24,000 bases of DNA, taken from contig JBBSMR010000003.1 in the NCBI GenBank assembly GCA_038233095.1, positions 74,476 to 98,475 on the forward strand, in the 5' to 3' direction. The notes below the pieces were generated by a model that did not search any database, had not been told where the DNA came from, and saw nothing but the letters and a program-made list of their open reading frames with translations. Position numbers and translations under genes: made by a program. How positions within the stretch are numbered: the first letter of the stretch is position 1; each line of letters starts with the position of its first letter. This document shows positions 9,304 through 24,000 of this stretch, piece after piece. The DNA comes from Euzebyales bacterium. GTDB lineage: Bacteria; Actinomycetota; Nitriliruptoria; Euzebyales; Egibacteraceae.

Positions 9304-10167
9304 TCAGGCGCGGCGGGCGACGCCTTCGCGTCGCGCCGCGAGGAGCGCGGACGCGCCGAAGACGACGGCGCTGCCGAGCACCCACGCGAGGTGGACGACC
9401 GCAGAGGCCGTCGGGATGCCCGTGAACGCCGCGACGTCCGACGCCGGTGCCATCTGCCGCCAGGCGAGCTGTCCGAAGTGGTACGTGGGCAGCCACACAG
9501 CGAGCGTGCTGAGGAAGCCCGGCAGCTCCGAGAGCGGGAAGAAGAAGCCGGAGCAGAACGACAGCGGGAGGAAGATCAGGTTGGCGATCGCGGCGGCCGC
9601 TCGCGGGCGGACGAGGTAGGCGATCGCGAAGCCGAGGGTGCTGAACGCCAGCACGCCGGCGAGCATGACGGCGGCGAAGGCGAGCCAGTTCCAAGCGTCC
9701 AGTGAGAGACCGCCGGCAAGGACCGCAACGGCGCTCATGGTCACGACGATGAGGGTGGCGTAGATGACGGCCATGGCCATCTTGCCGGACAAGTGCACCC
9801 ACGAAGGCAGCGGCGTGGCGCGCAGCGTGCGAGTCCACCCGCGGCCACGCTCCGCGGCGAGCTCGTCGCCGAAGGTGAAGATTGCGAGTGAGACGATGCC
9901 GTAGGCGCTCAGCGAGACGAGCATCATGACGCCGTAGGGCGTGCCGGCTGGCAGCGTGATGGACGCCCCAGGCAGCCCGAACATCGCATAGAGCAACACC
10001 GGCACGGCAACAACACCGATGACGAACTCGATGCTGCGGAAGGCAGCGAGGACCTCCGTGCGCACCTGCAGCGCCAGCAAGCCGAGCGGACCTCCGTTGC
10101 GCCGGGTCAGCGGCGGGCTCGCGGGGGTGGGCGCGTACGTCGTGGCGGAGGAAGCGGAAGCGGTCAT
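9304..10167 (-). CDS. ABC-2 type transporter permease
   Basis: 287 aa with about six hydrophobic helices. ATGA overlap with the upstream ATPase stop (10164-10167). Confidence 0.85.
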   Translation of the reverse strand: MTASASSATTYAPTPASPPLTRRNGGPLGLLALQVRTEVLAAFRSIEFVIGVVAVPVLLYAMFGLPGASITLPAGTPYGVMMLVSLSAYGIVSLAIFTFGDELAAERGRGWTRTLRATPLPSWVHLSGKMAMAVIYATLIVVTMSAVAVLAGGLSLDAWNWLAFAAVMLAGVLAFSTLGFAIAYLVRPRAAAAIANLIFLPLSFCSGFFFPLSELPGFLSTLAVWLPTYHFGQLAWRQMAPASDVAAFTGIPTASAVVHLAWVLGSAVVFGASALLAARREGVARRA

Positions 10168-11108
10168 GAGGGGGCTCCATCCAGGGTCGGGACCGGCGGT
10201 GCCGCGCGCGTCAAATGCACGAAGGCGTCCTCCAAGTCAGCGTCGGCGACGGTGAGGTCAGAGATGGCGTGCCCGCCGAGCACCAACGGGACCAGCACAT
10301 CCTCAGCCTTGGCGGCGTGGACGAGCAGACGCTGCATTCCTGGTGGCGCCGGGCCGCCGCCGACGTCGTCGAGCTCGATGCGCTCGGCGCCTGGCAGCGC
10401 GGTGACCACGGCCACTGGGGCGTCCGTGGTGACCCGGATCGTCTTCGACGCGACGAGCCGCTTCAGCGCGGCGGGGGGCGCGTCGGCGATCAGCCGTCCG
10501 TCCCCCAGCACCACGACCCGGTCGGCGACCGCGTCGGCCTCGGCGAGGTCGTGCGTGGCGAACAGCATCGTGGCCCCGTCCCGAACGCTCGCGCGGGTCC
10601 GCTCCCAGAAGGCCCGACGGGACGCCACGTCCATCGCCGCGGTCGGCTCGTCGAGCAGCAGCAGCTCGGGGGCGGACACGATCGCCAGCGCCAGGAGCAG
10701 CCGCTGCCGCTCGCCACCCGAGAGATCGGTGACGGTGCGCCTGCGACGATCGGTCAGCCCGACGCGTGCCAGCACCTCGTCGACCGGCAGCGCCACCGGA
10801 TAGCTGCGCCCGATCAGGCGCACCAGCTCCGAGACCGTGACCTGCTCGGGCAACCCGGCGTCCTGCAGCATGACCCCGAGCCGGCGCTTGACCCGCCCGC
10901 CTGGGGCCTCTCCGAGGACGCGCGCCTCCCCGCTGGTCGGCCGAGCGAGCCCGAGGAGCAGCTCGAAGGCCGTCGTCTTCCCCGCCCCGTTCGGGCCGAG
11001 GAGAGCGACGACCTCGCCTCGAGCGACCCGCAGGTCGAGGCCGGCGAGTGCCTCCACCGACCCGTAACGCTTGTGCACCGAGCGCAGTTCCAGCACCGTC
11101 ACGTCCAT
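10164..11108 (-). CDS. ABC transporter ATP-binding protein (exporter-type)
   Basis: Walker A GPNGAGKTT, signature LSGGERQR, Walker B LLLLDEP. Start is ambiguous (GTG 11111, ATG 11108, or a GTG two codons downstream); AGGAGG lies immediately upstream. Confidence 0.9.
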   Translation of the reverse strand: MDVTVLELRSVHKRYGSVEALAGLDLRVARGEVVALLGPNGAGKTTAFELLLGLARPTSGEARVLGEAPGGRVKRRLGVMLQDAGLPEQVTVSELVRLIGRSYPVALPVDEVLARVGLTDRRRRTVTDLSGGERQRLLLALAIVSAPELLLLDEPTAAMDVASRRAFWERTRASVRDGATMLFATHDLAEADAVADRVVVLGDGRLIADAPPAALKRLVASKTIRVTTDAPVAVVTALPGAERIELDDVGGGPAPPGMQRLLVHAAKAEDVLVPLVLGGHAISDLTVADADLEDAFVHLTRAAPPVPTLDGAPS

Positions 11109-11152
11109 CACCTCCTGCCCGAGACGCTAGGGACATCACCGCCGCGCGTCTT

Positions 11153-11191
11153 GTGCCAGACGTCATGTTTCGCAGGCATGACTTCTGGCAC
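11153..11191. promoter_or_regulatory. 15-bp-arm inverted repeat (14/15 match, 9-bp spacer) between the ABC exporter and the two-component operon
   Basis: GTGCCAGACGTCATG (11153-11167), then TTTCGCAGG, then CATGACTTCTGGCAC (11177-11191). Lies in the 116-bp divergent intergenic region. Confidence 0.4.
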
Positions 11192-11227
11192 CTGCGAGCT
11201 GTCGGTCGGCAGGCGTAGGGTCACGGT

Positions 11228-12358
11228 GTGAGCGAGCGCAACCTCGAGCGGCTGGGGATGGCCGCGGGCGCGATCGCCTGGTTGGCGGTCGGCGTCCCCG
11301 TGCTGCTCGAGCAGCTGCTGGGCTCAGGCGACATCATCAACGGGCCCGCCTGGGTGTGGTGGCTCGCCTACCTTGGCTATCTCGTCGCGTTCATGCTGGC
11401 CGACGCGGATCGTCTTCCCGGCTGGCTGACTCCTCACTGGCTGCTGGGGGCGCAGACGGTGCTCGGGGGCATCGTGTACGCGATGACGCTGGGGTTCGGC
11501 TGGACGGCCGTGCTGCTCGTGGTCACCGCGGTGACCGCCGCCTACGTCCTCGACACGCGCGGGACCATGGCGCTCGTCGCCGCGCAGACCGCCTTCATCG
11601 CCGTCGCCTCGCTCTTCGCCGGCGCCGACGCGCTCAATATCTTCCTCTCCGTCGTCGTCTACGGGAGCTTCCAGGCCTTCAGCGTGCTCGTGGTCTGGAG
11701 CGAGCTGCGCGAGGCCGAGGCGCGCGCCAGCCTCGCGGAGGCGAACGCTCAGCTGCGCGCCGCGACGGTGCTGCTCGACGAGTCCAGCCGGGTGACCGAG
11801 CGGCTGCGCATCGCGCGCGACCTGCACGACCTCATCGGACATCAGCTCACGGCGCTGGCGCTCGAGCTCGAGGTGGCGTCACATCGCAGCAGCTCGCCCG
11901 CCAGTGAGCACGTGAGCCGGGCGCGCCGGATCGCGAAGGAGCTGCTGTCGGATGTCCGCTCTGCGGTGGGAGAGCTGCGGGAACCGACCCCGGGACTGCG
12001 CTCCGCGCTGGAGGCGGTGGTCGCCGACCTTCCACATCCCGAGATCCACCTGCACGTGCCGGCACACGTCGAGGCTGACGAGGAGCGCACGATGGCGCTC
12101 GTCCGCTGCGTCCAGGAGATCGTGACGAACGCGGTGCGCCACGCTGACGCCGACCACCTCTGGATCCGCCTCGCTGCGACCGAGGGCGGAGGGACGCGCC
12201 TCGAAGCGCGCGACGACGGACGGGGGGTCGCGGCCCTGCGGCCCGGCAACGGGCTGACCGGCATCCGGGAACGGATCGAGCAGCTCGGAGGCGAGGTGGC
12301 GTTCGAGGTGGGTCCCGGGCGCGGCTTTCTGGTCGTCGCGGAGGTGCCCGCCCCGTGA
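11228..12358 (+). CDS. Sensor histidine kinase, HisKA_3 (NarL-partner) type, membrane-embedded sensor
   Basis: About six N-terminal TM helices with short loops. H-box RLRIARDLHDLIGHQLTAL. HATPase_c motifs NAVRHA, DDGRG and GNGLTGIRER. GTG 11228 start (alternative ATG 11258). Confidence 0.85.
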   Translation: MSERNLERLGMAAGAIAWLAVGVPVLLEQLLGSGDIINGPAWVWWLAYLGYLVAFMLADADRLPGWLTPHWLLGAQTVLGGIVYAMTLGFGWTAVLLVVTAVTAAYVLDTRGTMALVAAQTAFIAVASLFAGADALNIFLSVVVYGSFQAFSVLVVWSELREAEARASLAEANAQLRAATVLLDESSRVTERLRIARDLHDLIGHQLTALALELEVASHRSSSPASEHVSRARRIAKELLSDVRSAVGELREPTPGLRSALEAVVADLPHPEIHLHVPAHVEADEERTMALVRCVQEIVTNAVRHADADHLWIRLAATEGGGTRLEARDDGRGVAALRPGNGLTGIRERIEQLGGEVAFEVGPGRGFLVVAEVPAP

Positions 12359-13026
12359 TCGAGGTGTGTGTCGTCGATGACCAGACGCTTGTCCGAGAGG
12401 GGGTCCGCAGCCTCTTGGAGCTCGCCGAAGACGTGGTCGTCACCGGCGAGGCGGTGGACGGCGACGCGGCGCTCGACCTCATCGCGCGTCAGCCCCCCGA
12501 CGTGGTGCTGCTGGACCTGCGCATGCCGCGACGCGACGGCATCGCGACGCTGGAGGCATTGCGCGCACGCGGGATCGACCTGCCCGTCCTGGTCCTGACG
12601 ACCTTCGACGATGATGAGCTCGTCCTGCGCGCGCTGCGGGCGGGTGCCCGCGGGTACCTTTTGAAGGACGTCACGCTCGATCAGCTGGTCGAGGCGATCC
12701 GCACCCTCGCCAGCGGCGGGACCCTCGTTCAACCTGCGGTGACCGAGCGGATGGCGCGCGCGCTCGCGGAGCAACCGGAGTCCGATGCGTTCACCGAGCT
12801 ACCCGCGCCGCAGCCGTTGACGGAGAGGGAGCTGGAGATCCTGCGCCTGCTCGCGGGCGGGTATGCCAACCGGGAGATCGCCGCGGCGCTCTATCTCGCG
12901 CCAGGCACGGTGAAGAACCACGTCTCCAGCCTGCTCATGAAGCTCGGCGTCCGGGACCGCACGCGCGCTGTGCTGCGCGCGCTGCACCTCGGACTTCTGA
13001 CCCACGATGCCGGTCAGAACCCATGA
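12355..13026 (+). CDS. LuxR/NarL-family response regulator
   Basis: Receiver domain (VVDDQ..., DVVLLDLRMP, LTTFDDD, GYLLKD) plus a C-terminal LuxR HTH (LTERELEILRLLAGGYANREIAAALYLAPGTVKNHVSSLLMKLGV). GTGA overlap with the kinase stop. Confidence 0.9.
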   Translation: MIEVCVVDDQTLVREGVRSLLELAEDVVVTGEAVDGDAALDLIARQPPDVVLLDLRMPRRDGIATLEALRARGIDLPVLVLTTFDDDELVLRALRAGARGYLLKDVTLDQLVEAIRTLASGGTLVQPAVTERMARALAEQPESDAFTELPAPQPLTERELEILRLLAGGYANREIAAALYLAPGTVKNHVSSLLMKLGVRDRTRAVLRALHLGLLTHDAGQNP

Positions 13027-13074
13027 TCGCCCGAGGGTCTTGAACGTCACCGGCTTCCCCGGGCCCCGAGGCTG

Positions 13075-13452
13075 TCAGTACGGCGGCTGAAGATCGGGGA
13101 TCATCGGGAAGTGCCGCACGTTGCGGGTCAACAGCGGGGCGTCCAAGAGGCTCGCTGTCGCGGCGATGAGATAGTCGCTGGCATCAATACCGGAATAGGC
13201 CGCCCGGAAGCTCCTCGCGAAACTCGTTGCAAGGCGGATGATGTCCTCCGTGACGGGAATCCATTCGATGGCCGCCATGAAGCGTTCGACCGCTTCCTCG
13301 TCGTCATCTCGGACGCCGGCCAGCAGCTCGAACCGAACGATCTCACTGCCGATCATGTCTGTCCCAGCCGACAGCAGCTCATCGACCAACGCCCCAGCCG
13401 GCTCGTAGCCACGAAGATAGTCGATGGCGACGCTCGCATCGACCGATCTCAC
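13075..13452 (-). CDS. vapC: PIN-domain ribonuclease toxin
   Basis: Track ORF 13075..13539, trimmed to GTG 13450-13452, which overlaps the antitoxin stop (GTGA). An alternative GTG lies at 13458. PIN acidic residues sit in SVDASVAIDYL, EIVRFELL, DASDYLIAATA and LLTRNVRHF. Confidence 0.8.
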   Translation of the reverse strand: MRSVDASVAIDYLRGYEPAGALVDELLSAGTDMIGSEIVRFELLAGVRDDDEEAVERFMAAIEWIPVTEDIIRLATSFARSFRAAYSGIDASDYLIAATASLLDAPLLTRNVRHFPMIPDLQPPY

Positions 13453-13709
13453 GACCACCCGAGCTGTTCGAGGCGCTCGTTCAGGTCGCCGCGGATCCTC
13501 TCGACAAACTCCTCTCCGGTGAGTGGAAAGTCTCGCCACGCCCCGAAGCTCGATCGGAGAAGAGCGATCCGCGCTTCACGATCCGTCTTCCCATACCGCT
13601 CTCGGACAGCGCGTCGAATGAGCTCAGAACGCGAGGCGCCGGTGCGCGCGGCCGCCCGATCGAGCAACTCAACGTCTTCTGCCGCGAGGTAGATCTGCGT
13701 GCGTTGCAT
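13449..13709 (-). CDS. vapB: Ribbon-helix-helix (CopG-like) antitoxin
   Basis: Track ORF 13449..13859, trimmed to ATG 13707-13709. MQRTQIYLAAEDVELLDRAAARTGASRSELIRRAVRERYG is a canonical RHH N-terminus. Lies directly upstream of the PIN gene and overlaps it. Confidence 0.75.
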   Translation of the reverse strand: MQRTQIYLAAEDVELLDRAAARTGASRSELIRRAVRERYGKTDREARIALLRSSFGAWRDFPLTGEEFVERIRGDLNERLEQLGWS

Positions 13710-13849
13710 GACGCCACTGTACATCACCCGGCGTCCCTCAGGCGCGGGCGGAACTGCCGCCCGGTCGTGACGGCACGAGAGTGATCGCGGCGGCCCCCTC
13801 GATCGACGTACTACGCTTTCCTCGACTTCCGACAAGAGGTAGGGATGAC

Positions 13850-14872
13850 TTGCGAACACTGACGGGACGGCTTGTTCAGATCCTGTTGGCCGTGGTGCTG
13901 GTCGCCTGCGGTGGGACGCCCGGTGAGGCGACCGACAGTTCGCCGACCACCGCCGTGGCCCAGCGTGGGGGCGCGGCCGGCACCATCCGCCTGTACACCT
14001 CCGTCACCCAGGACACGGTCGACGCCGTGCTGCAAGGCTTCCAGAGTTCGAACCCCGACGTCAAGGCCGAGGTCTTCCGCGCCCCGACGGGTGAGTTGAA
14101 CGCGCGTCTGGCGGCCGAGCAGCGCTCAGGCGGCGTCAAGGCGGATGTGCTGTGGCTGACCGACCCCCTGTCGATGTACGCCTACGACGAGCAGGACCTG
14201 CTGGCCGAGTGGACGCCAAACGGCGCGGAGGCGATCCCTGAGCAGTTCAGGACCGAACGGTTCTGGGGCACCCGCATCCTCAACCTCGTGATCGTCCACC
14301 GGCAAGGCCTGCAACCCGCCCCGACGGGCTGGCAGGACCTGGCCGACGACGCCTACAGCGAGCCGGTGGCCTTCCCCGACCCGGCCTTCGCCGGGTCGTC
14401 GTTCGCGGCGCTCGGCTACTTCGCGCTCGATGAGGAGTTCGGCTTCGACTACTACCGGGCGCTCAGGGCGAACGGTGCCGTTGAGGTGCAGGCGCCCGAT
14501 GAGGTCATCACCGGGGTCGCGGAGGGCCGGTTCTCCGCCGGCATGTCGCTGGACAAGAGCGTCCGGGACGCGGCCGAGGAGGGCGCGCCGATCGAGCTGG
14601 TCTGGCCCGAGCCCGGTGCGATCGCGCTCTACAGCCCGATCGCGGTGATCAGGAGCACGACGAACGAGGAGGCCGCCCAGGCGCTGGCCTCCTTCGTGCT
14701 CACCGAGCCCGCACAGGCCGCGATCGCCTCCACGGGTTGGCAGCCCGTGCTCCCCGGTGTCGAGGGGCCGCCGATGCCGACGGACGCCGAGCAGGTGTTC
14801 CCCGACTGGGAGGCCGCCTTCGGCCGTCAGGACGAGCTGCTCAGCGAGTACCGCTCGAGCCTCGGAGACTGA
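13850..14872 (+). CDS. ABC transporter substrate-binding lipoprotein, Fe(III)/thiamine-type (AfuA/FbpA-like, family 1 SBP)
   Basis: Track ORF 13781..14872. TTG 13850 gives MRTLTGRLVQILLAVVLVACGG, a lipoprotein signal with lipobox LVAC, and has GAGGT about 9 nt upstream. The mature part (IRLYTS...ELNARLAAEQ...ADVLWLTDP) resembles COG1840-type iron-binding proteins (recollection). Confidence 0.75.
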   Translation: MRTLTGRLVQILLAVVLVACGGTPGEATDSSPTTAVAQRGGAAGTIRLYTSVTQDTVDAVLQGFQSSNPDVKAEVFRAPTGELNARLAAEQRSGGVKADVLWLTDPLSMYAYDEQDLLAEWTPNGAEAIPEQFRTERFWGTRILNLVIVHRQGLQPAPTGWQDLADDAYSEPVAFPDPAFAGSSFAALGYFALDEEFGFDYYRALRANGAVEVQAPDEVITGVAEGRFSAGMSLDKSVRDAAEEGAPIELVWPEPGAIALYSPIAVIRSTTNEEAAQALASFVLTEPAQAAIASTGWQPVLPGVEGPPMPTDAEQVFPDWEAAFGRQDELLSEYRSSLGD

Positions 14873-16500
14873 TGCGACGCTCAAGAGGCTGGGAGCGGTC
14901 CGGTCGCCTCGTCGTCGGCCTCGCGCTGGCGCTGCTGGTGGGCTACCCGCTGGTGCGGCTGGTGCTCGCCGCCTTCGCCGACGGGCCCGAGCCGGTGCTG
15001 GCCACCTTCGAGCGCTCCGGAATCGCCCGCGCGGTCGGCAACACGGTGTGGACGTCAGCGGCGGTGACTGCGGCGGCGGTGGCGCTGGGTACCGCCGGGG
15101 CGCTGACCATCGAGCGTGGCGCGGTGCCCGCGCGGCGCTGGCTGCGCGCGGGGCTGCTGCTCCCGCTGCTCGTCCCGCCGTTCGTGGCCGCGCTCGGCTG
15201 GACAGCCGGATACGGGCCGGGCGGGGTGCTGGACGACGCTGTGGGAGTGGCGGTCCCACAACTGTACGGACCCGTCGGTGTGATCACGGTCATCACCGTC
15301 AACGCCGTGCCGTTGGCCTATCTGATCGTGGCCGGAGCCTTGCGCGGACGGGCCGAACCTGACCTTGAGCGGGCGGCGCGCGTCAGCGGGGCCAGTGTAC
15401 GAACGGCCCTGTGGACGATCACGTTGCCGCTCCTGCGCCCCGCGCTCGGAGCCTCTGCGGTCGTGGTCTTCGTCTTCTCCGTCAACAGCTTCGGGGTGCC
15501 CGCCGTGCTCGGCACGCCCGCCGGCTTCGAGACGATGACCACGGTGATCTACCAGAACCTGGCGTTCGCCGCGGATCCCGACGCCTTCACCCGCGTGCTC
15601 GTCCTGGCCGTCGCGCTCGTACTCGTCGCGGTGGGCGCGGTGGCCGTCAGCGACGCCGTCGCGGCGGGCGGGCGGGTGCGGCGCACCGGCGGGCCGGCGG
15701 GAACAACCTCCGCCCACGTCACGACGCAGGGTCGGTGGGCGGCCGCGGTGGCCTGGGGCTACGTCGGCGCCACCAGCCTGGTTCCGCTGGTCGCCTTGGT
15801 CCTGCTCGCGCTCACCCGGGCGGTGGGGCTGCCGCCCGCCCCGCGGTACTGGACGCTGCAGAACTTCGCGGACGCCGTCGATGGGCGGACCCTCAGCTCG
15901 CTCGGGCACAGCCTGCTGCTCGCGGCGGTCGCCGCGACCCTGCTGGTCTGCCTCGGCGGCCTGGTCGCCGCGCTGGAGAGATCGCCAGCGGCACGACGGC
16001 TCGGCACCCTCGCCACGATGACGTTCGCCCTGCCCGGATCGGCGCTGGCCGTCGCCGTGCTGCTCGCCTACGGCAGTGTGCTTGCCGACACCCTGGCGAT
16101 CATCCTCGTGGCCTATCTGGGCAAGCTGTGGGCGTTGGGCCACCGGCCGCTGGCCGCCGCCGTTGATCGGCTCCCCGGAGACGTCCACCGAGCCGCGCGC
16201 GCTTCGGGGGCAGGACCCGCCACGACCCTGATCACCGTCGTCGCGCCGCTGCTCAGCCCCGCGCTCGCCGCCGGGTGGGTGCTGGTCTTCCTCTTCGCGT
16301 TCCACGAGCTGACGATGTCCGCGCTGCTGTACGGACCGGGAACCGCGACGCTGGGGGTCGCCGTGCTCAACCTGCAGCAGCTCGGCGACACGCCGGCGAC
16401 CGCGGCGCTCGCCATCCTGCTCACGGCGGGCGTTCTCGTGGGCGCCGCGCCCCTGCTCGTCTTCCGCGGGACCTGGTCCCGGCTGAGGCGGGTGGACTAG
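14872..16500 (+). CDS. ABC transporter permease, duplicated (about 12-TM) Fe(III)-type (AfuB/FbpB-like)
   Basis: Track ORF 14737..16500, trimmed to ATG 14872, which overlaps the SBP stop by 1 nt (TGATG). Two repeated MetI-like halves, highly hydrophobic, 542 aa. Confidence 0.85.
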   Translation: MRRSRGWERSGRLVVGLALALLVGYPLVRLVLAAFADGPEPVLATFERSGIARAVGNTVWTSAAVTAAAVALGTAGALTIERGAVPARRWLRAGLLLPLLVPPFVAALGWTAGYGPGGVLDDAVGVAVPQLYGPVGVITVITVNAVPLAYLIVAGALRGRAEPDLERAARVSGASVRTALWTITLPLLRPALGASAVVVFVFSVNSFGVPAVLGTPAGFETMTTVIYQNLAFAADPDAFTRVLVLAVALVLVAVGAVAVSDAVAAGGRVRRTGGPAGTTSAHVTTQGRWAAAVAWGYVGATSLVPLVALVLLALTRAVGLPPAPRYWTLQNFADAVDGRTLSSLGHSLLLAAVAATLLVCLGGLVAALERSPAARRLGTLATMTFALPGSALAVAVLLAYGSVLADTLAIILVAYLGKLWALGHRPLAAAVDRLPGDVHRAARASGAGPATTLITVVAPLLSPALAAGWVLVFLFAFHELTMSALLYGPGTATLGVAVLNLQQLGDTPATAALAILLTAGVLVGAAPLLVFRGTWSRLRRVD

Positions 16501-17502
16501 GTGGGCACCGACAGCGTCCTGGCCTGCACCGGTCTCACCGTCGGGTACGCGCAGACGCCGATCCTGCACCACCTCGACGTGCACATCGAGCACGATGAGT
16601 CGGTGGCGGTGCTGGGCCCTTCTGGGTCGGGAAAGACCACCTTGTTGCAGACGGTCGCGGGGTTCTTGGTGCCTTGGGAGGGCGAGATCCGAATCGTCGG
16701 CACGCTCGTCGCGTCACCTACGAAGGTGGCGCCGCCCGAACGGCGCAGCCTCGGGGTGGTCTTCCAGCACTACGCGCTGTGGCCGCACCTGTCCGCGCTC
16801 GACAACGTTGCCTACCCCATCCGACGCCGCGGCGCCGCGACCGAGCGTGCGCGCGGAGAGGCAGGCGAGCTGCTCGACCTCATGGGCATCGGTGCCCTCG
16901 GCGACCGCCGCCCCGACGAGCTCTCCGGTGGGCAGCAACAGCGGGTCGGGCTGGCGCGCGCTCTCGCACGCCGCCCAGACGTGTACCTGTTCGACGAGCC
17001 GACCGCTCACCTGGACGCACCGCTGCGCGGCGCGCTGCAGGAGGAGCTCGCCGAGCGTCGCCGTCAGACCGGCGCGGGGGCGCTGTACGCGACGCACGAC
17101 GCGGTCGAGGCGCTCGCCGTGGCGGACCGTGTGGTGCTGCTGCGTGACGGTCGCGTCGTGCAGTCCGGCGCGCCCGTGGAGGTCTATGAACAACCGGTCG
17201 ACCTGTGGGCGGCCAGGCTCACCGGCGCCGCATCGGTCCTGCCGACCGAGGCGCTGGCGTCGATGGGGCAGGCACTGGAGACGGACCCCGACGGTCACGC
17301 GCAGGTCCTCATCCGCCCTGAGTGGGCGGCGCTGCCGGGCCCCCTGCCCGGGCTCGTCACTCAAGTCTGGTACCGGGGGGCCCACACGGACTATCGGCTT
17401 CAGACCCCTGCCGGGGATGTCGTCGTGCGCCGCGCCGGCGGGCCGTGCGCGCGCGTCGGCGAGCGGCCCGGTTGGGCGCTGCACCGCTGCTGGCCGGTCT
17501 GA
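16501..17502 (+). CDS. ABC transporter ATP-binding protein (FbpC/PotA-like importer ATPase)
   Basis: Walker A GPSGSGKTT, Q-loop, signature LSGGQQQRV, Walker B VYLFDEP, and a C-terminal TOBE-like regulatory domain. GTG start lies directly after the permease stop. Confidence 0.9.
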   Translation: MGTDSVLACTGLTVGYAQTPILHHLDVHIEHDESVAVLGPSGSGKTTLLQTVAGFLVPWEGEIRIVGTLVASPTKVAPPERRSLGVVFQHYALWPHLSALDNVAYPIRRRGAATERARGEAGELLDLMGIGALGDRRPDELSGGQQQRVGLARALARRPDVYLFDEPTAHLDAPLRGALQEELAERRRQTGAGALYATHDAVEALAVADRVVLLRDGRVVQSGAPVEVYEQPVDLWAARLTGAASVLPTEALASMGQALETDPDGHAQVLIRPEWAALPGPLPGLVTQVWYRGAHTDYRLQTPAGDVVVRRAGGPCARVGERPGWALHRCWPV

Positions 17503-17528: not shown

Positions 17529-18347
17529 TCAGCCGAGGATGACGGCCGGGCCCGGATGCGCGAGACGGTGGTTGACCATCTCCAGCGTCCTCCGCGAATA
17601 GGCTCGCAGGGCATGCCGCCCGCGTGGGCTCAGACGGTCACAGACCCAGCCCCAGTGCATGGAGACCCAGTCACCGACCTGCACCTCCTGCACGAAGCCG
17701 AGACCGTCGATGGCCTTGACGACCGTCTCCACGCGCGGGGCGCCGAGCAGCAGCCGCCGTCCGTCCCACTCCAGAGGCCGGGACCGGACGGCGACCTCGT
17801 CGCCGGCCACCGCGACGGCCTGCCCCCAACGGATGCGGCAGCGGTCGAGGATCTCCAACGGCTGGCCACCACGGTCCTCGGGGCGCAACAGCCCCACCCA
17901 CGGGTAGACGCAGAAAACATGAAAGCTGTGGTGGGGCACTCCTCCAGCAGGGATCGACTCGGCCAGGCGGTCCCAGCCTGGCCCCGCGCGTCGACGAAAG
18001 CGTTCCTCCAGCGAGTTGCCCATCAGCGCCGTGGGCACCTCATCGAGCAGGCGGTTCCCGACCCAGTACGCCTCCACCACGCGTCGGTCGAGCGGATCCA
18101 AGCCGCTGGATTCCGCCAATAGCTGCAGATAGGGCCACGCACCATTGAAGGCCTGTGCGATCTGCACGATGCCGGCGTCCACGACCCGCGCCGCGCCGTA
18201 CTCGAGCAGCTCGCGATGATCCGTGGGGCCGCAGTATCCGCGTTCGTTCGGGGCGTAGGCGTAGCGCGCGAACAGCAGCGGTCCGAAGGAATCGGGGAGG
18301 GTCCGGGGGACGGTGTCCGACGTGGTGGGGGGCCGACCGGGATCCAT
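17529..18347 (-). CDS. Uncharacterised hydrogenase-cluster protein (DUF6390-like by recollection), last gene of the hyp operon
   Basis: 272 aa with strong codon bias. N-terminal LLFARYAYAPNERGYCGP motif. The C-terminal ~70 aa resemble a HypC fold (see findings). The family name comes from memory, not a search. Confidence 0.7.
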   Translation of the reverse strand: MDPGRPPTTSDTVPRTLPDSFGPLLFARYAYAPNERGYCGPTDHRELLEYGAARVVDAGIVQIAQAFNGAWPYLQLLAESSGLDPLDRRVVEAYWVGNRLLDEVPTALMGNSLEERFRRRAGPGWDRLAESIPAGGVPHHSFHVFCVYPWVGLLRPEDRGGQPLEILDRCRIRWGQAVAVAGDEVAVRSRPLEWDGRRLLLGAPRVETVVKAIDGLGFVQEVQVGDWVSMHWGWVCDRLSPRGRHALRAYSRRTLEMVNHRLAHPGPAVILG

Positions 18348-18434: not shown

Positions 18435-19517
18435 TCAGCAGATGCGAGGAAGGGGGTCGCCGACGAGCATGTCGATCATGCGGTGGCCGCCGAAGGTCGT
18501 GCGGCCGAGCACGCGGCCCTCGGGCTCGTCGCGCACCTCGCCGATGATCGCGGCGTCCGCGCCGGCCGGATGCGAGCGCAGCGCGTCGAGCGCGGCGTCG
18601 GCGTGCTCGGGTGCGACGAAGGCGACGAGCTTGCCTTCGTTCGCGACGTAGAGCGGGTCGATGCCGAGGATCTCCCCGGCGCCGACGACTTCGGGTCGCA
18701 GCGGCAGTCGCTGCTCGTCGATCACCACGCCCAACCGGGTGGCCAGCGCGATCTCGTTCAGCACCGTGGCGACCCCGCCCCGGGTGGCGTCGCGCATGCA
18801 GTGCAGCGATTCGCCACAGGCCTCGAGCATCGCCTCGGCCAGCGGCCACAAGGGCTGGGTGTCGCTGGAGACGTCGGCGTCGATGTCGAGCTCACCCCTG
18901 GCCAGCATGATCGCCACACCGTGATCGCCGATCGTGCCCGAGACGAGCACCTTGTCGCCGGGACGGACCAGTTCGGGCGCGACCGCGACGCCGGAGGGCA
19001 CGGCGCCCACCCCGGTCGTGGTGATGTAGAGCATGTCGGCCTTGCCGCGCTGCACGACCTTCGTGTCCCCGGCGACGATCGCGACGCCGGCCCGCCGTGC
19101 GGCCGCTCCCATGGCCCCCACCTCGGCCGCGAGCACCTGCGCGTCGAGGCCCTCCTCGAGGATGAGCGCCGCCGACAACCACGCCGGACGAGCTCCGACC
19201 ATGGCGAGATCGTTCGCCGTGCCGTTCACGGCTAGCTCGCCGATCGACCCGCCTGGGAAGGTGATCGGCTGGACGACGAACGAGTCGGTGGTGAAAGCAA
19301 GCCTCGCGCCGTCGAGCGCGAGCACCGCCGCGTCGCCGAGCGCCGCCAGCGTCGGGTTCTCCAGCGCGGGCACGATCAATCCCTCGACGAGCTGGCGGGA
19401 CGCCTTGCCGCCTGCCCCGTGCGACATGGTGATGTGCTCGTCGATGAAACGGGGGCGTCGCCGGCGCATGTCCTCGATGCGCTCGATGACTTCGTGTTCG
19501 GTGAACTGCTTGGGCAT
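18435..19517 (-). CDS. hypE: Hydrogenase maturation carbamoyl dehydratase HypE
   Basis: 360 aa, PurM-like. N-terminal ITMSHGAGGKAS and the diagnostic C-terminal PRIC. GGAGG-containing SD upstream. Confidence 0.95.
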   Translation of the reverse strand: MPKQFTEHEVIERIEDMRRRRPRFIDEHITMSHGAGGKASRQLVEGLIVPALENPTLAALGDAAVLALDGARLAFTTDSFVVQPITFPGGSIGELAVNGTANDLAMVGARPAWLSAALILEEGLDAQVLAAEVGAMGAAARRAGVAIVAGDTKVVQRGKADMLYITTTGVGAVPSGVAVAPELVRPGDKVLVSGTIGDHGVAIMLARGELDIDADVSSDTQPLWPLAEAMLEACGESLHCMRDATRGGVATVLNEIALATRLGVVIDEQRLPLRPEVVGAGEILGIDPLYVANEGKLVAFVAPEHADAALDALRSHPAGADAAIIGEVRDEPEGRVLGRTTFGGHRMIDMLVGDPLPRIC

Positions 19518-19539: not shown

Positions 19540-20664
19540 TCAGACCTCGACGTGCATCCGCTTCTTCGCGTAGCGGCCGTAGTTGTAGTACGCGGCGCAG
19601 GCGCCCTCGGACGAGACCATGCACGTTCCGATCGGCGTCTCCGGGGTGCAGGCGGTGCCGAAGACCTTGCACTCCCACGGCTTCAGCACGCCCTTCAGGA
19701 CCTCGCCGCACTGGCAGGACTTCGGATCGGCGACGCGCACACCCGGAACGGGGTAGCGCAGCTCCGTGTCGTACTCCGCGTACCGGGACGACAGCTTCAG
19801 CGCCGAGTGGGAGATGAACCCGAGGCCACGCCATTCGAAGTGCGGCCGGAGCTCGAAGACGTCGGCCATCACCCGCAGCGCCTGCGGGTTGCCGTCCCAC
19901 GGCACGATGCGGGCGTACTGGTTCTCGACCTCGGTCCGGCCCTCGGCGAACTGGCGCATGATCCAGGCGATCGACTCGAGCACGTCGAGCGGCTCGAAGC
20001 CCGCGCACACGACCGGCTTGCCGTGCTGGGCGGGGACGAACTCGTAGGGACGGCAGCCGATCACGGTCGAGACGTGGCCCGGCCCGATGAACGCGTCGAG
20101 GCGCAGATCGGGGGAGTCGAGGATCGCCTTGATCGCCGGGATGATCGTCACGTGGTTGCAGAAGACCGAGAAGTTCGTGATGCCCTCGCCCTTCGCCCGT
20201 ACGAGCGTGAGCGCCGTCGAGGGCGCGGTCGTCTCGAAGCCGATCGCGTAGAAGATGACCTGCTTCTCCGGGTTCTCGCGGGCGATGCGCAGCGCGTCCA
20301 GCGGCGAATACACCATCCGGATGTCGGCGCCCCGGGCGTTGGCGTCGAGGAACGAGCCGGTGCTGCCGGGCACGCGCATCATGTCGCCGAAGCAGGTGAG
20401 GATGACGTCGTCGTGCTGCTCGGCGATCGCGACCGCGTCGTCGACCCGACCCATCGGGATCACGCAGACGGGACAGCCGGGGCCGTGCACCAGCTCGATG
20501 GTCTCCGGCAGGAAGTCATGGACACCGAACCGGTAGATCGCGTGGGTGTGCCCGCCGCACACCTCCATGATCTTGTAGTGCCGACCGGGCTCGGCAAGGC
20601 TGGCGATCTGGGCCGCGAGCGCGCGCGCGAGCTCCGGGTCGCGGTATTCGTCTACGAAACGCAT
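19540..20664 (-). CDS. hypD: Hydrogenase maturation Fe-S protein HypD
   Basis: 374 aa. Motifs MEVCGGHTH, GPGCPVCV and FETTAP, plus C-terminal Cys motifs. Confidence 0.95.
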   Translation of the reverse strand: MRFVDEYRDPELARALAAQIASLAEPGRHYKIMEVCGGHTHAIYRFGVHDFLPETIELVHGPGCPVCVIPMGRVDDAVAIAEQHDDVILTCFGDMMRVPGSTGSFLDANARGADIRMVYSPLDALRIARENPEKQVIFYAIGFETTAPSTALTLVRAKGEGITNFSVFCNHVTIIPAIKAILDSPDLRLDAFIGPGHVSTVIGCRPYEFVPAQHGKPVVCAGFEPLDVLESIAWIMRQFAEGRTEVENQYARIVPWDGNPQALRVMADVFELRPHFEWRGLGFISHSALKLSSRYAEYDTELRYPVPGVRVADPKSCQCGEVLKGVLKPWECKVFGTACTPETPIGTCMVSSEGACAAYYNYGRYAKKRMHVEV

Positions 20665-20678
20665 GGGTCTCGACCTCT

Positions 20679-20954
20679 CTAGGCTGTGAGCTTCTCCAGA
20701 GCGACTTTGGCGTGCACGAGCAGCAGGTCACCGGCTGCGACCGGGCCGACGAGGTCGGTCGCGACCACCTCTTCACGACCCGTTTCGTCGCGGCACCGCG
20801 CGTCATAGGCGTCGGCCTCGACGACTCTCAGCGCCACGGCCACGTCCCCGCAGGTGATGCAGCCGTCGTCGATCGAGCAGGCGTCGACCGGTGTGCCGAG
20901 CGACGGCGGTGGTGCTGGGCCGGCGAGCGGCAGCAACGGCGACGCGCCGCTCAT
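20679..20954 (-). CDS. HypC/HybG/HupF-family chaperone paralog (no N-terminal Cys; internal CITCGD motif)
   Basis: Track ORF 20679..21221, trimmed to ATG 20952-20954, an ATGA overlap with the hypC stop. MSGASPLL...CSIDDGCITCGDVAVALRVVE...AAGDLLLVHAKVALEKL matches the HupF-like branch as I recall it. Confidence 0.7.
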   Translation of the reverse strand: MSGASPLLPLAGPAPPPSLGTPVDACSIDDGCITCGDVAVALRVVEADAYDARCRDETGREEVVATDLVGPVAAGDLLLVHAKVALEKLTA

Positions 20955-21223
20955 TCGATCCTCGATCCGGCGATCTCGGCGACCTCGGTGTCGAACTGCT
21001 CGCCGAGCAGCTTCAAGCCGCTCATCGCCGTGGCCGCCTCCTCCTCGTCGATGATCGACATCGCGAAGCCGACGTGGATGAGCACCCAGTCGCCGATCTC
21101 GATGCCTTCGTCCTTTACCAGGCCGATGTTGATGTTGCGTCGGACACCGGTGACCTCGACCTTGGCGAGCTGGTCGGTCTCCTCGAGGAAGTCGACCACC
21201 TGGCCCGGGATGCCAAGACACAT
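20951..21223 (-). CDS. hypC: Hydrogenase maturation chaperone HypC
   Basis: Track ORF 20951..21373, trimmed to ATG 21221-21223, giving the canonical MCLGIPGQVV N-terminus. IGDWVLIHVGFA motif present. GGAAAGGAG SD upstream. Confidence 0.9.
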   Translation of the reverse strand: MCLGIPGQVVDFLEETDQLAKVEVTGVRRNINIGLVKDEGIEIGDWVLIHVGFAMSIIDEEEAATAMSGLKLLGEQFDTEVAEIAGSRIE

Positions 21224-21227
21224 GGCG

Positions 21228-21584
21228 TTAGCTCCTTTCCGCCGGTTCGGCGGCGTGATAGCGGATCGACTCGAGTACCAGGTCGTCGCCGCCCTCGCGG
21301 GTGACCCGGACGCTTCCACACGTCGGGCAGGCGGGCGTCGGATCGCGCGAGTCGAAGGTGGCGCCGCAGTCATCGCAGGTGCCCTGCACGGGCACGAAGA
21401 CCAGCTCGGGGTGGGCCCCGTCGGCGACGCTGCCGGCGGCGACCAGCTCGAATGACTGGGCGAAGGCTTCGGGCTGAACGCGCAACAGGGTGCCGACCCG
21501 TACCGTCAGGCCGGCGACCGGGCGGCCGTCCGCGCGCCGCTCGACCGCGGCCAGGACGCTCTCGCACATGCCGATCTCGTGCAT
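21228..21584 (-). CDS. hypA: Hydrogenase nickel-insertion protein HypA
   Basis: Track ORF 21228..21629, trimmed to ATG 21582-21584, giving the MHE nickel-binding N-terminus (MHEIGMCESVL). Zinc site CDDCG...CPTCG. Confidence 0.9.
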   Translation of the reverse strand: MHEIGMCESVLAAVERRADGRPVAGLTVRVGTLLRVQPEAFAQSFELVAAGSVADGAHPELVFVPVQGTCDDCGATFDSRDPTPACPTCGSVRVTREGGDDLVLESIRYHAAEPAERS

Positions 21585-21588
21585 GGCC

Positions 21589-22098
21589 TCAGCCTCTCTC
21601 GTCAATGGGCAGGGTGTGACCCAGCCCATTGTCGGGCTCGCTCAGCAGTGTCACAAGCTGCTCCACCGTGGGCTCGACCGCCGCCTCGACCACAGGGGAG
21701 AGGCCCATCCGCTCGCTGACCTCGGCGGGCTCGCACCCAACCACGACCGTGGGTGGCAGCGTCCCCCCGAGGCCGCGCAGGCTCGCGAAGACCGTGGCCG
21801 GGTCCATGGCGTGGCTGTCGACCGTACCCCGCTCGGTCTGCTCGTCCGGATCGACGTGCAGGAGCGAGACCGTGCCAGGCTCAGCGCCGCTCGGCAGGGC
21901 GTCGATCAGCACGAGCTGGTCGACCCCGTTCAGCAGGTCATAGGCCAGATGAATCCCGCCGATGCCGTAGTCCTTCACCCGCACACCTTCGGGCAGCGGG
22001 CGCGCGGCCAACCGACGGGCGACCTCAGATCCGAAGCCGTCGTCACCCAGAAAGATGTTGCCGACTCCGGCGACCAGGACGCTCCTGCACTCGGCCAA
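21589..22098 (-). CDS. hupD: [NiFe]-hydrogenase maturation endopeptidase (HupD/HyaD/HybD family)
   Basis: Core VLVAGVGNIFLGDDGFG...LIDA...DSHAM... is typical of the family. The track ORF extends to 22341, but that extension is Arg-rich and overlaps a better-biased frame. TTG 22096-22098 gives MAECRSVLVAGVGN (169 aa). The start is uncertain. Confidence 0.8.
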   Translation of the reverse strand: MAECRSVLVAGVGNIFLGDDGFGSEVARRLAARPLPEGVRVKDYGIGGIHLAYDLLNGVDQLVLIDALPSGAEPGTVSLLHVDPDEQTERGTVDSHAMDPATVFASLRGLGGTLPPTVVVGCEPAEVSERMGLSPVVEAAVEPTVEQLVTLLSEPDNGLGHTLPIDERG

Positions 22099-22102
22099 AC
22101 GC

Positions 22103-22375
22103 CTAACCGCCCTGGTCGCCGGGCTTGAGCAGCGGCATCGCGGGGTCGATCGGCGGCAGCGGGTCGACCCCGGACCACGACGAGGGACCTTTGCGGTCCA
22201 TCGAGTCCTTCTTCCCGCTGGCTCTTGCTTGCCTGGGTATCGCGGTGCCGCGGCCGCGGCTGCCAGGCCGTCCGCGTTGCTCCTGCGACTCCGCTTCCGA
22301 GAACCGTCCTGCCGGGAACGGGTTGGCCCGCTCCAGGTCACTTGGCTCCATCACCATGCCTCGTCGGTTTGGCAT
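22103..22375 (-). CDS. Hypothetical low-complexity protein (90 aa) upstream of hupD
   Basis: Hand-counted GC by codon position is about GC3 82%, GC1 70%, GC2 61%, the pattern expected for a coding frame. ATG 22375 has GGGAG 8 nt upstream. The TAG stop lies 4 nt before the proposed hupD start. The sequence is Pro/Gly/Arg/Ser-rich with no Cys and no recognised family. Confidence 0.45.
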   Translation of the reverse strand: MPNRRGMVMEPSDLERANPFPAGRFSEAESQEQRGRPGSRGRGTAIPRQARASGKKDSMDRKGPSSWSGVDPLPPIDPAMPLLKPGDQGG

Positions 22376-22392
22376 CGCTCATGCTCCCTTCG

Positions 22393-22506
22393 TCACATCG
22401 ACCTGATCTTGACGTAGCGCTTGATGTCGTCCAGCGAGGCGACCACCGCCGCGGTGAGCATGACGGCGACCGTTCCGAGCATCGTACGCAGGATCCACTT
22501 CTCCAT
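22393..22506 (-). CDS. 37-aa single-TM micro-protein (not in the ORF track)
   Basis: MEKWILRTMLGTVAVMLTAAVVASLDDIKRYVKIRSM. The ATG is preceded by GAAGGAGG (22513-22520) with a 6-nt spacer. 35 of 37 codons end in G/C. One hydrophobic helix is followed by a basic tail. Confidence 0.6.
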   Translation of the reverse strand: MEKWILRTMLGTVAVMLTAAVVASLDDIKRYVKIRSM

Positions 22507-22533
22507 GTCGCGCCTCCTTCGTGTGGCGTTCCA

Positions 22534-22551
22534 CCGACCCCCCAGGGTCGG
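22534..22551 (-). promoter_or_regulatory. Intra-operon GC hairpin (7-bp stem, 4-nt loop)
   Basis: CCGACCC (22534-22540) pairs with GGGTCGG (22545-22551). Sits between the 440-aa gene stop and the SD of the micro-ORF. No U-tract. Confidence 0.3.
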
Positions 22552-22557
22552 CGACTG

Positions 22558-23880
22558 CTAGGACTGCACCTCCTTGAGCGGCAGCGGATCAACCTCGTCG
22601 CTCGCGAAATACTGGAAACGGCCGTACCAACGGTGCAGCTCCGCCGCGGGGTCGTCGACCAAGGTCACGGCGAGGTAGACCTCACCCTCCTCGGTGCGCA
22701 CGATCCGCTCCACGAGCGCCTCCCGTCCGTCAGCAAAGAGATCGTGGGCGTCGGCGCGGCGCCGGGGACGCAGGATCACACGCTCTCCCACCGCCACCGT
22801 CTCGCCGCCCACCTGGATCGCGCGCACAGGCGCCTCCCCCACGCCGAGCAGGTCGCGCACCTCGTCGGTCACGGCGGCCGCCGGCTCGGGCCGCAGATCG
22901 GCGGGGCGCAGCTCGCGGACCGTGCCGTGCAGGCGCTCCTGCACCGCCGCGGGGAGCGTGTCCGTGCGGTCGATCAGCTCCGCGGCGCGCGGATCGGTCG
23001 CCCGTGCCCGGCGCCTCTCCTCGTCTGACAGCCCGAGCACACACAACGCGAGCAGCTCGTCGACCTCGGTCGCGTCGAACGACGGTCCGGGGCTCTCGGC
23101 GGCGATCTGAGGATGGTCGTAGAGGATGATCGGGGCGCCGAGCACGACGTCGTCGTCCTCGCCGACCAGCACCGGATGCAAGCCACGGTGGTGCAGGTCC
23201 GCGACGGCTTCCTCGGCCCACTCCGGAGGATCGATCGCCGAGGCGAACACGCCGTCGTCGACCGCGAACAGCACGTGCGCGCCGATGACCGCGCGTCGCA
23301 GCACGTCGTCGCGAGGCGCGCGCTGCGCGGACCATGGTGTGTCGTTCTGCACCGCCGCCCGCAGCTTGTACACGTCGGGTCCAAGCCGAGTCACCTCGAC
23401 GCGCAGCTCACCGCACACCGGCTCGGTGCTGCGCACCGCCTGGCCGGCCGCGCCGAGCGCTTCCCGCTCCTGCGAGCCGTCCAGGTCGAAGCGAGCACGC
23501 CACGGTCCGGCCTCGCCAAGGACCACCGCCGCCGTGACCTCGTGCTCGAGCCCCTCCTCCCAGGTCGGGACGGGGTCGCCGTCGACCTCCAGCTCGTCGA
23601 CGGGCTGGCCCTCGGCGTCGAGCATCTGGCGCAGCCGCAGGTGCAGGAAGCGCGCCGAGACGTCGACGACGGCTCCTGCGGGCGCGCGGACGAGCGCTTC
23701 ACAGTGGACGGCGCTCGGCTCGGTGGCGCCGAGCTCGACCTGGGCCTGCGGGATGACCACGCCCCACTGCCACCGGTACTTGTTCTTGAGCGCCGATGCC
23801 CGGTACGGGAAGAGCACGTAACCCTCGTAGAGCACGGCATCGGCGACCTGCCGCGCGAGCTGCAGCGTCTCGGCGCTCAT
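22558..23880 (-). CDS. Conserved-looking hypothetical protein (440 aa) in the hydrogenase maturation operon
   Basis: Track ORF 22558..23952, trimmed to ATG 23878-23880, an ATGA overlap with the upstream gene's stop. Strong codon bias throughout. Only 3 Cys and no metal-cluster or nucleotide-binding motif that I recognise. Confidence 0.7.
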   Translation of the reverse strand: MSAETLQLARQVADAVLYEGYVLFPYRASALKNKYRWQWGVVIPQAQVELGATEPSAVHCEALVRAPAGAVVDVSARFLHLRLRQMLDAEGQPVDELEVDGDPVPTWEEGLEHEVTAAVVLGEAGPWRARFDLDGSQEREALGAAGQAVRSTEPVCGELRVEVTRLGPDVYKLRAAVQNDTPWSAQRAPRDDVLRRAVIGAHVLFAVDDGVFASAIDPPEWAEEAVADLHHRGLHPVLVGEDDDVVLGAPIILYDHPQIAAESPGPSFDATEVDELLALCVLGLSDEERRRARATDPRAAELIDRTDTLPAAVQERLHGTVRELRPADLRPEPAAAVTDEVRDLLGVGEAPVRAIQVGGETVAVGERVILRPRRRADAHDLFADGREALVERIVRTEEGEVYLAVTLVDDPAAELHRWYGRFQYFASDEVDPLPLKEVQS

Positions 23881-24000
23881 GACAGGTGCTCCGGGGGACC
23901 GGGCATCACGACCGAGGCGTCCTGGAGCAGTCGGGTGACGGCGGCATCCCACGTGGGCAGCGCATGGCGAGCCTTGTAGTCCTGCAGCGCGTCGATCGTG
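23877..24000 (-). CDS. 3' end of an unidentified gene (5' part outside the window), first visible gene of the operon
   Basis: The minus-strand frame is open from the window edge to TGA 23877-23879. Translation: ...TIDALQDYKARHALPTWDAAVTRLLQDASVVMPGPPEHLS. Not in the track because there is no start in the window. The stop overlaps the next gene's ATG. Confidence 0.4.
   Translation of the reverse strand, partial: TIDALQDYKARHALPTWDAAVTRLLQDASVVMPGPPEHLS

Follow-up and report, generated by a model that had tools for sequence, protein, structure and literature searches.

The gene at positions 22558 to 23880 (minus strand, stop codon included) of a 24,000-nucleotide stretch of DNA from a Euzebyales bacterium (contig JBBSMR010000003.1, positions 74,476 to 98,475 of the forward strand; the whole stretch is called the window here) encodes a 440-residue protein of an unnamed family that is an obligate companion of the group 1h [NiFe]-hydrogenases. 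Clusters of group 1h/5 were already known to contain the family as a conserved hypothetical; the window holds one more copy of a recognised, uncharacterised gene and not a new system. An initial annotation, made from the sequence of the window, had described an unassigned protein inside a hydrogenase operon, and this description holds. New are the profile of the gene across two phyla, the counts for its coupling to the preceding gene and for its adjacency to the gene of the HupD-type protease, three in-frame fusions to HupD, the remote homology of its core to a module of the helicase DrmA as found with a sequence profile and two structural models, the PetP-like barrel predicted at its C-terminus, and the recognition that apparent stand-alone copies of the C-terminal domain are artefacts.

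All linkage counts refer to 80 genome loci that were fetched for the family. Each of them is an Hhy cluster (80/80), and about 72 of the 80 show the canonical order of small subunit (HhyS), large subunit (HhyL), HhyE, DUF5947, DUF6084, and the gene under study. DUF6084 was detected in 76 of the 80 loci and is located upstream on the same strand in 74, with a four-nucleotide overlap of stop and start in 55 of these 74 and a distance of at most 20 nucleotides in 69. On the downstream side, the gene for a HupD-type protease follows within 100 nucleotides in 58 loci and within 400 nucleotides in 67. The two genes can even be fused in frame, as in metagenome-assembled genomes (MAGs) of the Thermoanaerobaculia (L019, 1818-5075) and of the Acidimicrobiaceae (L044, 9758-11863) and in the metagenomic protein P0048. 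These fusions, from two MAGs of different phyla and one metagenome contig, are continuous open frames with a linker of about 10 residues. In two other loci (L013 and L031) the gene is found among the Hyp genes on the strand opposite to the structural genes, upstream of HypD-HypE-HypA, and in L031 it also follows a HypC match and precedes a weak HupD match.

A few loci deviate in another way. In two Streptomyces loci (L039 and L062) and one Georgenia locus (L074), at around 10001-16000, the gene precedes HhyS and DUF6084 is undetectable, while DUF5947 and a short HhyE-like gene are kept, so that the gene is tied more tightly to HhyS and HhyL than to DUF6084. At the start of a contig of an Actinophytocola MAG (L020, 270-2731), HhyS is followed after a gap of nine nucleotides by the gene and then by HypD and HypE, with no HhyL, HhyE, DUF5947, or DUF6084 between HhyS and the gene. 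The arrangement reflects either a rearrangement of the cluster or a faulty assembly.

Phylogenetic profiling, which the initial annotation had named as a check, shows that the gene tracks the group 1h HhyL in two phyla. Within the phylum of the window (201 genomes) the gene is present in 26 genomes and an HhyL with at least 59% identity in 27, both being present in 26, and in the lone discordant genome HhyL is situated 1.5 kb from a contig end. In the phylum of a Thermoanaerobaculia MAG (121 genomes), all five genomes with a group 1h HhyL carry the gene, and a sixth genome has the gene 0.8 kb from a contig end with no group 1h HhyL detected. The gene is never present in those of the 201 and 121 genomes that encode only more distant [NiFe] large subunits (at most 46% identity). 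A paralogous [NiFe] cluster (L101, located on G017:C19, 4858-11191, minus strand), whose large subunit is 46% identical to HhyL, likewise has no DUF5947, no DUF6084, and no copy of the gene. The accessory set of that cluster comprises two HycI-like proteases, a NifU protein, a 176-residue protein of unknown type, and a 457-residue TPR protein. Because every one of the 80 loci is an Hhy cluster and the profile follows the group 1h HhyL in both phyla, the specificity of the gene for group 1h hydrogenase clusters is well supported.

The gene itself is confirmed at its coordinates. Its ATG is at 23880-23878 and its TAG at 22560-22558, on the minus strand, for which the initial annotation had given no orientation. 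As annotated before, the start codon and the TGA (23879-23877) of the preceding gene, which is DUF6084, overlap in the sequence ATGA, and a GGAG is found eight nucleotides 5' of the ATG. The strong codon bias noted earlier is also seen: across the entire open frame in which the gene lies (22558-24000), the GC content is 0.86 at third codon positions (GC3) and 0.48 at second positions (GC2), the window as a whole having 70% GC. A database protein (P0002) is identical over all 440 residues and has the same start. No promoter-like or terminator-like site was found in a scan of positions 21000-24000. The encoded protein is acidic (isoelectric point 4.66; 79 Asp and Glu compared to 45 Lys and Arg) and has no hydrophobic stretch long enough to span a membrane. 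It contains three cysteines, none of which is conserved, and alignments of 31 and 76 homologues have no invariant cysteine column and no conserved cluster of Cys or His residues, in agreement with the earlier reading that CxxC clusters are absent.

The operon around the gene runs on the minus strand and has been assembled from the window and from the contig beyond it (L001, which is G000:C3:96000-107695). Its order is HhyS, HhyL, a NifU/Rieske-like protein of the HhyE type, DUF5947, DUF6084, the gene under study, a 37-residue DUF6893 peptide, a HupD/HycI-type protease, HypA, two HypC-family proteins, HypD, HypE, and DUF6390. HhyL carries both motifs of the group 1h/5 large subunits exactly, L1 TSRICGICGDNH and L2 SFDPCLPCGVH (both as quoted in PMC5364354), the latter being followed by a C-terminal extension of 22 residues. 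HhyS has no motif for twin-arginine translocation (Tat; no RRxFxK), and the closest solved structure to HhyL is 5AA5, the 'actinobacterial-type' hydrogenase (AH) of R. eutropha. With L1, L2, and a small subunit that has no Tat signal, the operon has the features of group 1h/5 and is a group 1h [NiFe]-hydrogenase cluster (Hhy-type, 'actinobacterial-type', high-affinity). It is the single hydrogenase of this genome, in which one other weak match stayed under the Pfam cut-off. The genes of the operon within the window are as follows:

23877-24000, minus strand: 3' end of the DUF6084 gene (Pfam PF19562), whose stop overlaps the start of the gene under study
22558-23880, minus strand: the 440-residue gene under study, an Hhy accessory protein of the type found at the PHG069 position (open reading frame and translation)
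22393-22506, minus strand: DUF6893, a 37-residue membrane peptide with a single helix, preceded by GAAGGAGG (Pfam PF21833, E 3.9e-10; sequence and hydropathy)
21589-22341 (longest open reading frame), minus strand: maturation endopeptidase of the HupD/HycI type (Pfam PF01750)
21228-21584, minus strand: HypA, nickel metallochaperone (Pfam PF01155)
20951-21223, minus strand: chaperone of the HypC/HupF family, copy 1, of about 90 residues (Pfam PF01455, E 2.8e-24)
20679-20849, minus strand: HypC/HupF-like protein, copy 2, short, of about 56 residues (Pfam PF01455, E 1.2e-7, in the C-terminal 53 residues of the open reading frame 20679-21221)
19540-20664, minus strand: HypD (Pfam PF01924)
18435-19517, minus strand: HypE (Pfam AIRS and AIRS_C)
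17529-18347, minus strand: DUF6390, the final gene of the operon (Pfam PF19927, E 4.5e-93)

Some of these genes deserve a comment. The sequence GAAGGAGG is a strong ribosome-binding site of the DUF6893 peptide gene, which is located between the gene under study and the protease gene; a DUF6893 gene has also been called at the equivalent position of another locus (L088). Because the protease starts within 100 nucleotides of the gene under study in 58 of the 80 loci, the peptide gene can be its neighbour in a minority of loci at most. The true start of the HupD gene is probably later than that of the longest open reading frame, in which the PF01750 domain begins at residue 106. The two genes of the HypC/HupF family stand in tandem between HypA and HypD (20679-21223, minus strand), and the longest call for the second copy (180 residues) fuses non-coding or overlapping sequence with the true gene. 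DUF6390 was found in nine of the 80 loci and also near the paralogous hydrogenase of genome G017, and may therefore not be specific to group 1h. HypF and a SIS-domain gene are located nearby on the contig. The latter is an open reading frame of 437 residues adjoining HypF (L001, 10021-11334, minus strand), whose SIS domains are confined to residues 249-393 and whose N-terminal part of about 240 residues is not matched in Pfam; the AH cluster of C. necator, too, includes a SIS-domain gene. Beside the operon, positions 9304-17502 of the window contain an ABC-2 exporter pair, a two-component system of the HisKA_3/LuxR type, and the genes of an ABC importer (solute-binding protein, fused permease, and ATPase with a TOBE domain). 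No obvious link of these transport and two-component genes to the hydrogenase was seen.

The gene has a counterpart in the AH cluster of Cupriavidus necator. Plasmid pHG1 of strain H16 encodes a full-length homologue (WP_011153991.1, 'hypothetical protein'; 35% identity, E 3e-47, with 96% of the query covered) within the same order of genes as here, namely small subunit, large subunit, NifU, DUF5947, DUF6084, homologue, and protease, with four-nucleotide overlaps at both junctions of the homologue. The plasmid version differs in being slightly longer (476 residues) and in not being followed by a gene for a DUF6893 peptide. By homology and gene order, the window's gene is the positional orthologue of the pHG1 gene that is flanked, in the AH cluster, by DUF6084 and the maturation protease. 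Equivalents were also found in plasmid-borne and chromosomal Hhy clusters of Mycobacterium, Streptomyces, and Methylocystis. By its position, WP_011153991.1 is probably PHG069, and the mapping to the M. smegmatis gene is likewise tentative. In M. smegmatis, MSMEG_2717 is homologous to PHG067 and the downstream genes are called hypothetical (PMC6883350). Thermomicrobium roseum has conserved hypotheticals named hhaABC (trd_1876-1874) after hhySL, which are up-regulated together with the hydrogenase under carbon limitation (bioRxiv 10.1101/457697). One of hhaA, hhaB, and hhaC may correspond to the 440-residue protein, or its counterpart may be the gene with which the neighbouring 'maturation' operon begins. 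We found no paper that assigns a function to the family, names PHG069, or gives the function of the M. smegmatis counterpart.

The family is large. Databases hold more than 5,512 homologues; Pfam domains are found in none of them, and wherever a source supplies a name it is 'hypothetical protein'. Named sources include Euzebyales, Egibacteraceae, and Thermomicrobiales, and the genome loci come from many Actinomycetota as well as from Thermoanaerobaculia and proteobacterial MAGs. A tblastn search returned 13 plasmid records, each covering at least 96% of the query, among them Cupriavidus necator H16 pHG1, Methylocystis parvus, Mycobacterium intracellulare, and Streptomyces. The protein of the window has no Pfam or NCBIfam match at E<=1, the 31 aligned homologues share no consistent Pfam family at E<=10, and no chain was matched at E<=10 when the sequences of the PDB were compared with the family profile. 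In the alignments of 31 and 76 members, dozens of residues are invariant and fall into four clusters. The first is the N-terminal motif YEGY.L.PYR.S..KN..RWQ.G with invariant L23, P25, Y26, K32, N33, R36, W37, Q38, and G40. The second is spread over the β-domain (R77, F78, L79, W107, E109, N179, R190, H202). The acidic central block PIILYDHP..A.ESPG..FDATE.DELL, which the initial annotation had already singled out as a conserved motif, is the best-conserved part of the family, with P250, I251, L253, D255, P257, A260, E262, S263, G265, D269, E272, E275, and L277 invariant and the cluster extending to T295 and D296. The last cluster belongs to the C-terminal domain (D377, A378, D380, F382, D410, R421, Y424, E429).

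Two AlphaFold models, one of the window's protein and one of the homologue P0099 (44% identical), have mean pLDDT (predicted local distance difference test) values of 77.9 and 81.9, respectively, and a predicted template modelling score (pTM) of 0.70 each, and agree in their layouts. They show an N-terminal helix, a β-module resembling the N-terminal region of DrmA, an acidic helical block, a flexible linker, and an SH3 barrel resembling PetP. In the coordinates of the window the predicted parts are:

23731-23880, minus strand: residues 1-50, an N-terminal helix (residues 3-21) and a highly conserved segment of low confidence (pLDDT 53-56 at residues 21-40)
23131-23727, minus strand: residues from about 52 to 250, a β-rich core homologous to the N-terminal module of DrmA (AlphaFold strands at 57-249, pLDDT mostly 87-97)
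22930-23133, minus strand: residues 250-317, the most conserved, acidic block with a loop of low confidence and four short helices (helices at 273-317; pLDDT below 50 at 261-271)
22846-22929, minus strand: residues 318-345, a linker of variable length and low confidence (alignment gaps; pLDDT 33-54)
22561-22845, minus strand: residues 346-440, a predicted C-terminal SH3-like β-barrel, PetP-like (AlphaFold strands at 354-432; Foldseek)

The extended consensus of the block at residues 250-317 is PIILYDHP..A.ESPG..FDATE.DELL...TD..K..AR.TD.RAA..IDR.

Foldseek searches with the predicted structures matched no enzyme family and returned DrmA and PetP. Against the PDB, a single match is significant and it is the same for both models, namely the DISARM helicase DrmA (7s9v, chain A), with E values of 4.5e-5 and 1.3e-5, a probability of 1.00, 324 and 341 columns, and TM (template modelling) scores of 0.22-0.23. 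Independently of the models, 16 of the 31 family members are recognised by PDLC02573, the PADLOC model of DrmA, with E values down to 2.7e-11 and always collinearly, from about residue 52 to 319 of the protein and from 76 to 341 of the 1018 positions of the model; the relatives are above the threshold of PDLC02573 and the protein of the window itself is below it. Because the profile and the structural matches coincide, the core of the family, that is its N-terminal part of about 300 residues, is remotely homologous to the N-terminal module that precedes the helicase of DrmA. EVE-like and helical domains, a jelly roll, and a trigger loop have been described for that region of DrmA (bioRxiv 2025.09.15.676423). 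The boundaries of the shared module are those given by the hmmscan coordinates, and any of these sub-domains may be the one that is matched. The likeness concerns this shared module before RecA1, with a global TM score of only 0.22-0.23, and we reject the idea that the protein is a DrmA. A helicase core is missing and no helicase domain was matched in Pfam, there is neither a DrmB/DUF1998 partner nor a defence context, and its neighbours are all hydrogenase genes. Full-length DrmA matching PDLC02573 was found neither in the 201 actinobacterial genomes, which gave generic helicase-core matches only, nor in 251 proteobacterial genomes.

The initial annotation had also proposed that the last 90 or so residues look like a small β-barrel. 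Both models bear this out, and the C-terminal part of about 90 residues is assigned to the SH3-like fold on their basis. Superposed on PetP (7r0w_V and 2n5u), the predicted barrel gives TM scores of 0.65-0.77 normalised to PetP and a root-mean-square deviation of 2.3-3.7 Å at a Foldseek probability of 1.00, the two models reaching 0.76-0.77 at 2.3-2.5 Å. The Foldseek matches to PetP and to BAH domains have probabilities of 0.97-1.00, and the nitrile hydratase β-subunit is also matched, BAH and nitrile hydratase less well than PetP. The likeness to PetP concerns the fold of about 75 C-terminal residues; the sequences are only 14-22% identical with no match at the sequence level, the context is different, and SH3-like barrels are common. 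Membership in PetP was rejected, because PetP is a stand-alone subunit of the cyanobacterial cytochrome b6f, of about 65 residues, whereas the barrel here is a domain of a 440-residue protein. A HypC-like barrel was rejected as well, because PF01455, like every other Pfam family of hydrogenase accessory proteins, has no match in the protein or its 31 homologues at E<=10 and Foldseek finds an SH3-like fold and not an OB-fold. A search with residues 344-440 returned 'proteins' of 79-162 residues and thereby the candidate of a stand-alone family of the C-terminal domain, which was rejected. These copies are frameshift fragments, and the two long contigs inspected contain hydrogenase clusters with many broken genes, as in error-prone assemblies.

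Concerning the role of the protein, we consider it an even bet that it is a non-catalytic assembly or maturation factor that acts near the proteolytic step. It would be made in a fixed ratio with DUF6084 through translational coupling. Its partner would be the hydrogenase before maturation, as the HhyL precursor or as a pre-complex of HhyS and HhyL. It would then act at or just before the removal of the C-terminal extension of HhyL by HupD, and would leave the finished enzyme afterwards. This reading is suggested by the absence of cofactor motifs, by conserved segments that are predicted to be disordered, as is typical of binding motifs, by the near-constant adjacency to HupD and the occasional fusion with it, and by the ability of the gene to travel with the Hyp genes. 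It is also in line with the only solved group 1h hydrogenase, 5AA5, given that no chain of the PDB matches the family. The initial annotation had put forward a scaffold or chaperone specific to this hydrogenase class. The specificity stands, with the 80 Hhy loci and the profile in two phyla behind it, and a scaffold or chaperone is a candidate role that fits the evidence. Class-specific helpers of hydrogenases keep immature subunits until cofactor insertion and proteolysis are done. The HypC/HupF/HoxL chaperones and HoxO/Q/R/T/V of the O2-tolerant membrane-bound hydrogenases would be analogous in this proposed role, but neither group has any sequence or fold relation to the protein, and the cluster already has two HypC genes.

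Several observations weigh against an assembly factor. Its mechanism is derived from gene neighbourhood and fusions, and the fusions, coming from two MAGs and one metagenome contig, might be due to sequencing errors. In eight related loci HupD and HypD, joined by HypC in one of them, are divergent and the gene stays behind as the last of the structural genes, which fits a structural role equally well. In a distance-matrix (mirror-tree) comparison, the distances of the protein co-vary better with those of HhyE, DUF5947, and DUF6084 (r 0.72-0.77) than with those of HypD (0.52), HypE (0.68), and HhyL (0.65), the positive-control pair HypD-HypE reaching 0.90. This comparison is crude, as it is based on 20 loci having all eight proteins at enough coverage and is confounded by shared phylogeny and rate. 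Lastly, the group 1h cluster of Methylacidiphilum SolV has been described with hhyS, hhyL, and hupD only (PMC5364354), so that the protein may not be universal among group 1h enzymes.

The main alternative, possible though less probable, is a loosely bound, non-catalytic structural or adaptor subunit, which together with HhyE, DUF5947, and DUF6084 would dock the soluble HhyS/HhyL core to the membrane or to an electron acceptor and would be lost when the core is purified. The gene usually closes the structural block and is translationally coupled to DUF6084, it stays with the structural genes in the eight loci with divergent Hyp genes, and its distances co-vary best with those of HhyE, DUF5947, and DUF6084, the weak signal from 20 loci given above. 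The predicted barrel is similar in fold to PetP, which serves cytochrome b6f as a peripheral adaptor, Hhy has been reported to be membrane-associated without having transmembrane segments (bioRxiv 10.1101/769216), and a gene for a 37-residue membrane peptide follows here. However, this peptide is adjacent in a minority of loci at most, and the protein has no transmembrane segment, no identifiable amphipathic anchor, and no redox-cofactor motif. Moreover, its fusion partner is the protease and not HhyS, HhyL, or HhyE, and its rate of evolution is about 3.7 times that of HhyL (mean distances of 0.74 and 0.20, respectively).

It is unlikely that the protein is itself an enzyme or a regulator, for example one that modifies a hydrogenase component or senses a signal through its invariant Asp, Glu, His, and Arg residues. 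Many charged residues are indeed invariant (E109, H202, D255, E262, D269, E272, E275, D296, H318, D377, and D380), and the module of DrmA to which the core is homologous is part of the regulatory N-terminal region of that helicase. However, no enzyme family was matched in Pfam, NCBIfam, the PDB sequences, or by Foldseek, the conserved loop is predicted to be disordered and thus better suits a binding motif than an active site, and the net acidic charge speaks against nucleic-acid binding. The chance that the gene is merely an accidental open frame is next to nil and has already been refuted by the conservation data: shadow frames are common in high-GC DNA (the window has 122 open reading frames of at least 80 residues), but the GC3 and GC2 values of the containing frame, thousands of homologues with 35-79% identity in at least four phyla, the dozens of invariant residues, and the confident AlphaFold models all contradict such an origin.

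For the assembly factor, a more specific but rather improbable version could be imagined, in which the protein is a hydrogenase-specific gatekeeper. The module resembling the N-terminal region of DrmA and the conserved, disordered acidic loop would cover a surface of the immature HhyL/HhyS, while the C-terminal extension would be held, or HupD recruited, by the PetP-like barrel, so that proteolysis and final assembly of the O2-insensitive, high-affinity enzyme would be licensed only after correct metal loading. Such an occlusion would be similar to that in DrmA, where the region of the trigger loop occludes the substrate site of the helicase. If true, this would be a checkpoint without counterpart in the other classes of [NiFe] hydrogenases.

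Biological removal of H2 from the atmosphere is mainly the work of the group 1h hydrogenases, which also aid the persistence of soil bacteria. Other genes that are specific to group 1h and to which no function has been assigned are HhyE, DUF5947, DUF6084, DUF6893, and DUF6390. Among all such genes, the present one is the only large one that lacks a Pfam entry, despite the thousands of members of its family. Knowing the role of this protein would illuminate the aerobic maturation of an O2-insensitive [NiFe] enzyme and could aid its heterologous production.

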